Shown piece by piece: positions 26,065 to 30,573 of a stretch of DNA of 64,000 nt. The position numbers and the translations under genes are program-made. Within the stretch, counting starts at the first letter, position 1. Each line of letters starts with the position of its first letter. The notes under the pieces were generated by a model. That model searched no databases. It was given only the letters and a program-made list of their open reading frames with translations, and was not told where the DNA came from. Origin of the DNA: Escherichia coli (GTDB taxonomy: Bacteria > Pseudomonadota > Gammaproteobacteria > Enterobacterales > Enterobacteriaceae); NCBI RefSeq assembly GCF_044324785.1, contig NZ_CP172127.1, one strand, 5' to 3'.

Positions 26065-27048
<984 letters not shown>

Positions 27049-27070
27049 TCGTTTCTGATTCATTGATTAA

Positions 27071-27107
27071 AGGCCAGCCAGTAACACAACTGACTGGCCT
27101 TTTTATT
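27071..27107. terminator. bidirectional rho-independent terminator after yfeX
   Basis: aggccag...ctggcct stem flanked by aaa and ttttatt. Confidence 0.55.
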
Positions 27108-27133
27108 ACTGCTTTAACGCCGCATACACTTGA

Positions 27134-27223
27134 TCAACTACTTTCTGTCAGAACAGGGTATTTTGCGGCGCTGACGCTACAACTAACAGCCAGCAGAGAA
27201 AGATAGAGCATTGTCCGTTTCAT
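27134..27223 (-). pseudogene. 29-codon 5' remnant of a secreted protein at the position expected for yfeW (PBP4B); probable deletion remnant
   Basis: Minus-strand ATG 4 nt after the murP stop encodes MKRTMLYLSLLAVSCSVSAAKYPVLTESS then stop; signal-peptide-like; only about 180 bp separate murP from yfeX. Confidence 0.4.
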
Positions 27224-27227
27224 ATTA

Positions 27228-28652
<1,425 letters not shown>

Positions 28653-28655
28653 GGG

Positions 28656-29552
28656 TTATTCCTTGTCTAAAACCTGACGAATAAAGCCGCCGTGTTGATC
28701 AAGGCGTTTTTTAGCTTCTGCGGCATCGAGATTTTTCAGCACCATCACAATGGCCGTTTTACAGTTGCGCTCGCAGGCAACCAATGCCGCTTCCGCTTGC
28801 TCTGCGCTACATCCGGTAGCGTTTTTGACGATATTGACCTGGCGCACATGCAGTTTTTCGTTGGTGGCGACCACATCAACCATCAGGTTACCGAACACTT
28901 TGCCGGATTTAATCATCAGCCCGGTGGAGAGCATGTTGAGCACCAGTTTCTGCGCCGTACCTGCTTTCATTCGCGAAGAACCTGTGACCACTTCGGCCCC
29001 AACAACTGGCGTAATGGCAAACTCAGCGGTGGTTGAAACAGCGCTCCCGGGATTACAGGAAATTCCCACTGTGCGGCAGCCGAGCTGGCGTGCGTATTCC
29101 AGTCCGGCAATCACATACGGCGTGCGTCCGCTGGCCGCAATACCAACCACCACATCCTGCGCGGTTAAATTAAGATTTTTCAGATCGTTAACACCACCTT
29201 CCCGGCTATCTTCCGCGCCTTCCACCGCGTGCTGAATGGCATATTCGCCGCCAGCAATTAATCCAACTACCAGGCCTGGCTTCACGCCGTAGGTGGGCGG
29301 ACATTCGCTGGCATCCAGAATCCCCAGACGACCGGATGTTCCCGCACCGAGATAAATCAGACGCCCGCCGCCGCTTACCTGGGCGTGGATAACATCGATC
29401 GCCGCGGCGATATCCGGCAGTACGCGCTCAACGGCAAGCGGTACGGTTTTATCTTCATCGTTGATAATCCGGCACATTTCCAGCGTTGATACGCGGTCAA
29501 TTTCAGCCGAGGCGGCGTTCGAGCCTTCGGTAATCATCTTTTCAAGTTGCAT
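28656..29552 (-). CDS. murQ: N-acetylmuramic acid 6-phosphate etherase
   Basis: 298 aa, SIS-domain etherase; directly upstream of murP. Confidence 0.9.
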
Positions 29553-29715
29553 CGGTGGTGACCTTACTATTTACGATCAAATAATTGCAGATGTATGGAA
29601 TCATATATCCCGAATTGACAGACTTAAAGGAATCATTGAGTCTACACTCGCAGAGTGTGAAGAGCGTCATAAGAACTTAAGCGGAATTTTTGCTGCCAGC
29701 CCAGGAGAGTGGAAG

Positions 29716-30573
29716 ATGTTGTACCTGACGAAAATACGCAATGCGGAAAGTGAATTTACCGAGAACGAGCAAAAAATTGCTGACTTTCTGCGGGCCAACG
29801 TGAGTGAGCTGAAATCCGTCTCTTCGCGCAAGATGGCGAAACAGCTCGGCATCAGCCAGTCGAGTATTGTGAAGTTTGCCCAGAAGCTCGGCGCGCAAGG
29901 ATTTACTGAATTGCGTATGGCGTTAATTGGCGAATACAGTGCCAGCCGGGAGAAAACGAATGCCACGGCGCTGCACCTGCACAGTTCGATTACCAGTGAT
30001 GATTCGCTGGAAGTGATTGCCCGCAAACTGAATCGCGAAAAAGAGCTGGCGCTGGAGCAAACCTGCGCGTTGTTTGACTACGCGCGGCTGCAAAAAATCA
30101 TTGAGGTCATCAGTAAAGCACCGTTTATCCAGATAACGGGCTTGGGTGGGTCGGCGCTGGTGGGGCGCGATCTGTCGTTCAAACTGATGAAAATTGGCTA
30201 TCGCGTGGCCTGTGAAGCCGACACGCACGTACAAGCCACCGTTTCTCAGGCGCTGAAAAAAGGCGATGTACAAATCGCTATCTCTTACAGCGGCAGTAAA
30301 AAAGAGATTGTCTTGTGCGCCGAGGCAGCGCGAAAGCAGGGGGCAACGGTGATTGCCATTACCTCGTTAACCGATTCTCCGCTGCGGCGGCTGGCGCATT
30401 TCACGCTCGATACCGTTTCCGGTGAAACCGAATGGCGTAGCTCGTCGATGTCTACCCGCACGGCGCAAAATTCTGTTACCGATTTACTGTTTGTTGGCCT
30501 TGTGCAACTCAATGATGTGGAGTCATTGAAAATGATTGAGCGCAGCAGTGAGCTAACGCAACGCCTGAAATGA
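29716..30573 (+). CDS. murR: RpiR-family transcriptional regulator of murQP
   Basis: 285 aa from ATG at 29716 ([25 protein letters not shown]...), HTH plus SIS domain; divergent from murQ. Confidence 0.85.

Follow-up and report, generated by a model that had tools for sequence, protein, structure and literature searches.

An internally deleted remnant of pbp4B (yfeW) downstream of murP in Escherichia coli

The 29-codon open reading frame that follows murP in this genome is almost certainly a non-functional leftover of pbp4B (yfeW), which stands third in the MurNAc-catabolism operon murQ-murP-pbp4B, and results from an illegitimate deletion of 1184 bp; we put the probability of this reading at about 0.95, and nothing was found that contradicts it. 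The locus lies in a window of 64,000 nucleotides of E. coli contig NZ_CP172127.1 (assembly GCF_044324785.1), by which we mean the whole stretch of DNA that was analysed, and positions are those of the window unless another locus is named.

The 29-codon open reading frame

The frame occupies 27134..27223 on the minus strand and is separated from the murP stop by a four-nucleotide spacer, TAAT. It starts with the ATG at 27223 and closes with a TGA at 27136–27134, and both the ORF list and the translation of 27223–27134, MKRTMLYLSLLAVSCSVSAAKYPVLTESS*, agree with the 29-codon frame four nucleotides past the murP stop that the initial annotation had described. It is composed of pbp4B codons 1–27, a codon 28 (AG|T) that spans the deletion junction and by coincidence still specifies Ser, an out-of-frame AGT, and the TGA. 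The first 83 nt constitute a retained 5' fragment of pbp4B (27141..27223, minus strand), identical at 83/83 nucleotides to both K-12-type and EDL933 pbp4B; the start context is the native one, with a weak GGA Shine-Dalgarno-like motif within the 3' end of murP.

Comparison of the peptide with the YfeW N-terminus, suggested when the frame was first noticed, gives a match of the 29 residues to positions 1–28 of the NCBIfam PBP4B model NF002968 (25.7 bits, E = 4.7e-6). NF002968 is an equivalog model whose curated cut-off of 385 bits applies to the whole protein; the remnant scores below it, and the intact allele of strain ST2747 (890 bits) above it. With 83/83 nucleotide identity and the NF002968 match taken together, chance can be regarded as ruled out as the source of the resemblance to pbp4B. 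By inspection the N-terminus is signal-peptide-like, with MKRT followed by MLYLSLLAVSCSV and then by S-A-A ahead of K. A candidate lipoprotein signal (A-V-S-C15) was considered and dropped, as the -3 residue is atypical and the -1 Ser is replaced by Asn in one Escherichia species.

The deletion and its junction

Two intact alleles serve as references, ATCC 98082 (locus L002), which is K-12-type, and ST2747 (locus L008), the closest intact allele found. Aligned to the K-12-type murP-yfeW-yfeX region, the window matches as far as nucleotide 83 of the gene and the match resumes 1184 nt later. Window 29700–27141 aligns to L002 1001–3560 (murQ, murP, and the first 83 nt of pbp4B), 27141–27074 to L002 4744–4814 (the last pbp4B codons, the stop, and a hairpin), and 27100–26000 to L002 4970–6070 (the hairpin and yfeX). 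BLAST and alignment coordinates place the junction at 27140..27141 (minus strand), with 1184 bp absent relative to the intact alleles; by alignment the missing segment is L002 3561–4744, and L008 3283–4466 in ST2747. Microhomology at the deletion endpoints amounts to 1–2 nt (G or GT).

Codons 29–423, about 91% of pbp4B, are gone, and the PBP4B active-site motifs SNTK (102), YSD (203), and HTG (371; positions in the K-12 protein) all lie within the deleted codons; the serine-acyl-transferase motifs (SxxK, Y-x-N/D, K/H-T-G) are accordingly absent from the remnant. As the deleted length is no multiple of 3, the reading frame shifts, and a stop is reached two codons past the junction. On the far side of the junction is a retained 3' fragment of 35 nt (27106..27140, minus strand, from the alignment), whose native frame reads ..VVDQVYAALKQ* and ends in the native pbp4B TAA at 27108–27106; it is out of frame and untranslated, and carries a deletion-linked A at 27130. 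As this fragment, the native stop, and the hairpin behind it are all kept, the lesion lies inside the gene and is no truncation that extends to yfeX. The original suggestion was that a deletion had removed almost all of yfeW and spared its initiation region, and this holds; what it lacked is that the deleted segment lies within the gene, that its loss shifts the frame, and that the last 35 nt and the presumed terminator were also left. The features expected of a pseudogene are found together at this locus: both gene ends are homologous, the interior is absent, the frame is broken, and relatives and outgroups have an intact syntenic orthologue.

Organization of the murP–yfeX region

The genes on either side of the remnant are intact. 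murP, coding for the PTS MurNAc transporter IIBC (474 codons; 27228..28652, minus strand, from the ORF list), ends with TGA at 27230–27228, and its length and position match the annotated murP in loci L001–L009. The ORF list and translations further identify murQ, the MurNAc-6-P etherase gene and first gene of the operon (28656..29552, minus strand), and the divergent repressor gene murR (285 codons; 29716..30573, plus strand). The porphyrinogen peroxidase gene yfeX (299 codons; 26149..27048, plus strand), identified from the ORF list and homologous-locus annotation, is convergent with murQP. The gap between murP and yfeX spans 27049–27227, and at 179 bp it is close to the approximately 180 bp first estimated.

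This gap includes a 14-bp stem-loop at 27069..27102 (fold -29.6 kcal/mol, z = -4.4), presumed to be a bidirectional intrinsic terminator, which is common to the convergent murQP(-pbp4B) and yfeX transcripts and is homologous to the hairpin behind pbp4B in intact alleles. Its tail is UUUAAU on the murQP strand, and the complement reads TTTTTATT but with an internal C/A mismatch. A consensus promoter and terminator scan of 26900–27400 returned no site and did not call the hairpin, and an Rfam scan of 26500–27800 found no known RNA, the sole match being a chance-level hammerhead (E = 0.57, 17 bits vs 52). In the operon scheme of Jaeger & Mayer, as reproduced in PMC5061867, murQ-murP-yfeW forms one operon with a terminator behind yfeW, accompanied by the divergent repressor murR.

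The spacer between pbp4B and yfeX varies among genomes. The window, EDL933, and ST2747 have one hairpin and a 57-bp spacer; K-12-type genomes have an extra block of ~155 bp (L002 4815–4969; window ~27066–27100) between two hairpin copies, and this block contains REP-like sequence (GCCGGATAAGGCGTTCACGCCGCATCCGGC). The spacer is 62 bp in Salmonella and 97–100 bp in Citrobacter, and is longer in other Escherichia species. We also note a 308-codon open reading frame exactly antisense to yfeX (26137–27063, minus strand), which opens with an ATG just past the hairpin and is probably a chance mirror frame. The murQ-murP segment (27150–29552) is unusually polymorphic in E. coli, with 91–98% identity per 300-nt window in a mosaic pattern, and the yfeX side of the locus is 96–100% identical among E. 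coli; the murQ-murP polymorphism suggests frequent recombination or introgression at the operon.

Intact pbp4B in E. coli and its relatives

PBP4B is a class C low-molecular-weight penicillin-binding protein related to AmpH and AmpC. The initial annotation placed a yfeW gene of roughly 430 codons after murP in the K-12 order, and the gene does have 434 codons in K-12 and lies between murP and yfeX; it is 1305 nt long in ATCC 98082 and 1302 nt in ST2747. In K-12-type genomes intact pbp4B starts 4 nt past the murP stop and converges on yfeX, and the remnant still has this place, third in the operon behind murQ and murP and in convergent orientation to yfeX. The window shares with K-12 pbp4B, at the same locus, the 83-nt 5' end, the homologous 35-nt 3' end, and the hairpin presumed to be a terminator, but codons 29–423 and the catalytic motifs that K-12 has are missing from the remnant, and its frame is shifted.

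A protein-guided scan of GTDB species representatives finds pbp4B directly after murP and convergent with yfeX in E. whittamii, two further Escherichia species, S. enterica subsp. arizonae, and two Citrobacter representatives (L015, L016). Since an intact syntenic pbp4B is present in Escherichia, Salmonella, and Citrobacter, the intact form is ancestral and the window carries the loss.

Distribution of the deletion

A probe of 120 nt centred on the junction, with coverage of at least 80%, detects the junction in 1272/5426 complete E. coli genomes (~23%), and the deleted 1184-bp segment is present in 4153/5426; the sum, 5425, comprises all genomes matching the region. The survey of other genomes that had been proposed thus identifies a common allele, not one peculiar to the window. 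Among the carriers are Nissle 1917 (EcN) and UM146, which we take to belong to phylogroup B2, pig O139:H1 ETEC strains, the dog isolate 19KM1831, and the food-animal isolate F11. RefSeq labels the locus as a pseudogene ('hypothetical protein; incomplete; missing C-terminus') in 7/7 public carriers inspected, and the RefSeq pseudogene in Nissle 1917, UM146, SCU-484, and others has the same 1184-bp deletion, junction, and 29-codon stub as the window. The remnant is therefore an ordinary, widespread, and previously annotated pseudogene. An exact search for the 27-nt junction among 100,044 GTDB species representatives gave 0 matches, and a search of the accessible literature on yfeW, PBP4B, and murR found no paper on the pbp4B deletion.

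Several sampled carriers have a further loss at the opposite end of the operon. murR is also missing in SCU-484, C7, EcN, and Z1323CEC0015 (L003, L005, L007, L073), with ~910 bp (window 29643–30551), comprising murR and a portion of the intergenic region between murR and murQ, replaced by ~40 bp (L003 1019–1059), and ucpA adjoins murQ. A probe for the murR-deletion junction matches 1047/5426 complete genomes, and should these 1047 all fall among the 1272, ~225 carriers would, like the window, have retained murR. In the murR-less strains the sequence left upstream of murQ is only 90 nt, and murQP regulation may therefore differ there. SCU-484, C7, and EcN thus differ from the window in being without murR, and the window murQP allele is only ~95.5% identical to theirs. 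The best identity to the window among the 5426 complete E. coli genomes is 98.0% for 15000–39000 and 98.6% for 40000–64000, and the lineage of the window is thus not closely represented among them.

The 29-codon frame should not be annotated as a gene, and the RefSeq label could become 'pbp4B pseudogene'. The junction (CTGACAGAAAG|TAGTTGATCAAG) provides a simple marker for two classes of E. coli, with 23% vs 77% of complete genomes, and the pbp4B junction and murR deletion together give three classes. The significance is small by itself, being that of a genome without one redundant, low-level cell-wall carboxypeptidase; the mild interest is population-genetic, with one junction on very different flanking haplotypes and 1047 genomes having the murR deletion at the other operon end.

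Alternative readings of the short locus

The 29-codon frame could instead have been kept as a functional small gene, coding for an exported or membrane peptide or serving, through its translation, as a spacer that shields the murQP mRNA at its 3' end, and some of its features would fit: it is open in 8/8 sampled carriers, its start 2–4 nt past the murP stop suits translational coupling, and its charged-then-hydrophobic layout is, by inspection, that of a signal peptide. We nevertheless consider this very unlikely. An 87-nt frame is expected to remain open by chance at the 2–6% divergence of the carriers, so its persistence is uninformative; its length is set by an accidental frameshift stop; and its 25.7 bits come only from being the PBP4B N-terminus. 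The replacements seen among carriers are Y7C, V13I, P23T, T26A, T26I, and S28G, or at least six amino-acid replacements vs 3 synonymous changes among 8 alleles. The corresponding codons of intact genes vary to a similar degree, and the stub is conserved no more tightly than they are, so nothing suggests that the peptide is under selection. As far as these alleles indicate, the stub peptide gives no sign of function.

Two other accounts deny that a deletion occurred at all. Were the short form ancestral, with pbp4B inserted between murP and yfeX in other lineages, the bare pattern of presence and absence would look the same, but the short form holds both ends of the gene, joined out of frame, and the intact gene at the same position in other Escherichia, Salmonella, and Citrobacter refutes this order of events, to which we give practically no credence. 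That the short murP–yfeX gap was produced by faulty assembly or sequencing of the window is vanishingly improbable, and is refuted by the same junction in 1272 independently assembled complete genomes.

Origin of the deletion

The deletion most likely arose once, long ago, and its flanks appear to have been reshuffled later by recombination with intact alleles. A single old origin is supported by the one junction position in 8/8 sampled carriers, 7 of which also agree in the junction sequence, and by a linked SNP, the A at 27130, which is 11 nt from the junction and is present in 7/8 carriers and in 0/7 intact alleles (all G). The claim is weakened by the very mosaic flanks. The ETEC6333 remnant equals the intact ST2747 allele on both flanks to within 16 nt of the junction, and in Nissle (EcN) the murP, yfeX, and yfeY proteins encoded around the deletion do not differ from those of K-12. 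A homologous exchange with an intact donor that preserves the deletion would have to end at the junction, and with tracts ending there each flank could be overwritten right up to the junction; the locus would then illustrate how recombination with intact alleles erases linkage as far as a deletion junction.

One carrier, Z1323CEC0015, departs from the rest. It has a junction variant, AAAGTTGTTGATCAGG (AAAGTTGTTG...; L073 7009–7190), without the linked SNP, its right flank is EDL933-like, including an extra Lys codon, and its junction haplotype occurs in no other of the 5426 genomes. Either this flank was converted by an intact donor as far as the junction, or 1184 bp were deleted independently in this genome at a site offset by 2 nt; a left-side exchange tract extending one mismatch beyond the junction would give exactly this variant.

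The same deletion could also have been repeated at a structural hotspot in different pbp4B haplotypes, which would account for the at least four different 5' haplotypes among carriers, each matching an intact allele, and under which Z1323CEC0015 is readable as an EDL933-like allele with an offset deletion and nothing else changed. We regard recurrence as improbable, as the endpoints have 1–2 nt of microhomology only and no endpoint repeat is seen on visual inspection of the flanking sequence, the derived SNP so near the junction is shared by nearly all sampled carriers and by none of the intact alleles, and donor recombination stopping at the junction explains the converted flanks, that of Z1323CEC0015 included. 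With a single origin followed by recombination as the preferred reading, a more speculative extension is that loss of PBP4B is advantageous and that this advantage explains why an ancient polymorphism has spread to, or persisted in, many E. coli backgrounds; we give it a small chance. If it were true, then in the lineage that is also without murR the two losses together would have turned MurNAc recycling into a murQP-only module free of repression, with possible relevance to extra-intestinal lifestyles, and the survival of a single junction on at least four divergent flanking haplotypes would be a selection footprint.

Consequences for the operon and the cell

What survives the loss of the 1184 bp is the start region, the final 35 nt of pbp4B, and the presumed terminator. 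With the hairpin kept, the murQP transcript should still end at its normal place, and with murR, murQ, and murP also intact, MurNAc uptake, catabolism, and regulation should be unaffected. Ribosomes that have completed murP are probably able to start again at the ATG 4 nt further on, and the product would be a 29-residue signal-peptide-like stub without catalytic residues that is presumably degraded. Judged from its genome, the cell from which the window derives is predicted to be without PBP4B. In PMC4916385, which cites Vega & Ayala 2006, PBP4B is described as one of eight redundant class C PBPs, non-essential, and produced at ~20–30 molecules per generation. We infer that its loss is phenotypically neutral.

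Other losses and distant homologues of pbp4B

Different lesions of the gene at the same locus elsewhere are in keeping with its being dispensable. In Escherichia albertii NBRC 107761 (type strain; L071 1152–1730) only residues 1–56 and 161–228 of pbp4B are left, a decay independent of the deletion in the window. In E. coli HH97 (L074 2658–3684) pbp4B appears disrupted by ~770 bp of foreign or low-quality sequence, G-rich and of low complexity, and murR is frameshifted, but this may be an assembly or base-calling error.

Homologues of PBP4B that are 55–60% identical to the E. coli protein over nearly its full length are present in Bacillaceae (L023–L043, L051–L055), in the genera Priestia, Gottfriedia, Metabacillus, Peribacillus, Neobacillus, and related ones, and in one Metabacillus locus (L027) a murP-like gene lies upstream of the PBP4B homologue. 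The unusually high identity across phyla hints at horizontal transfer of a MurNAc-linked module.
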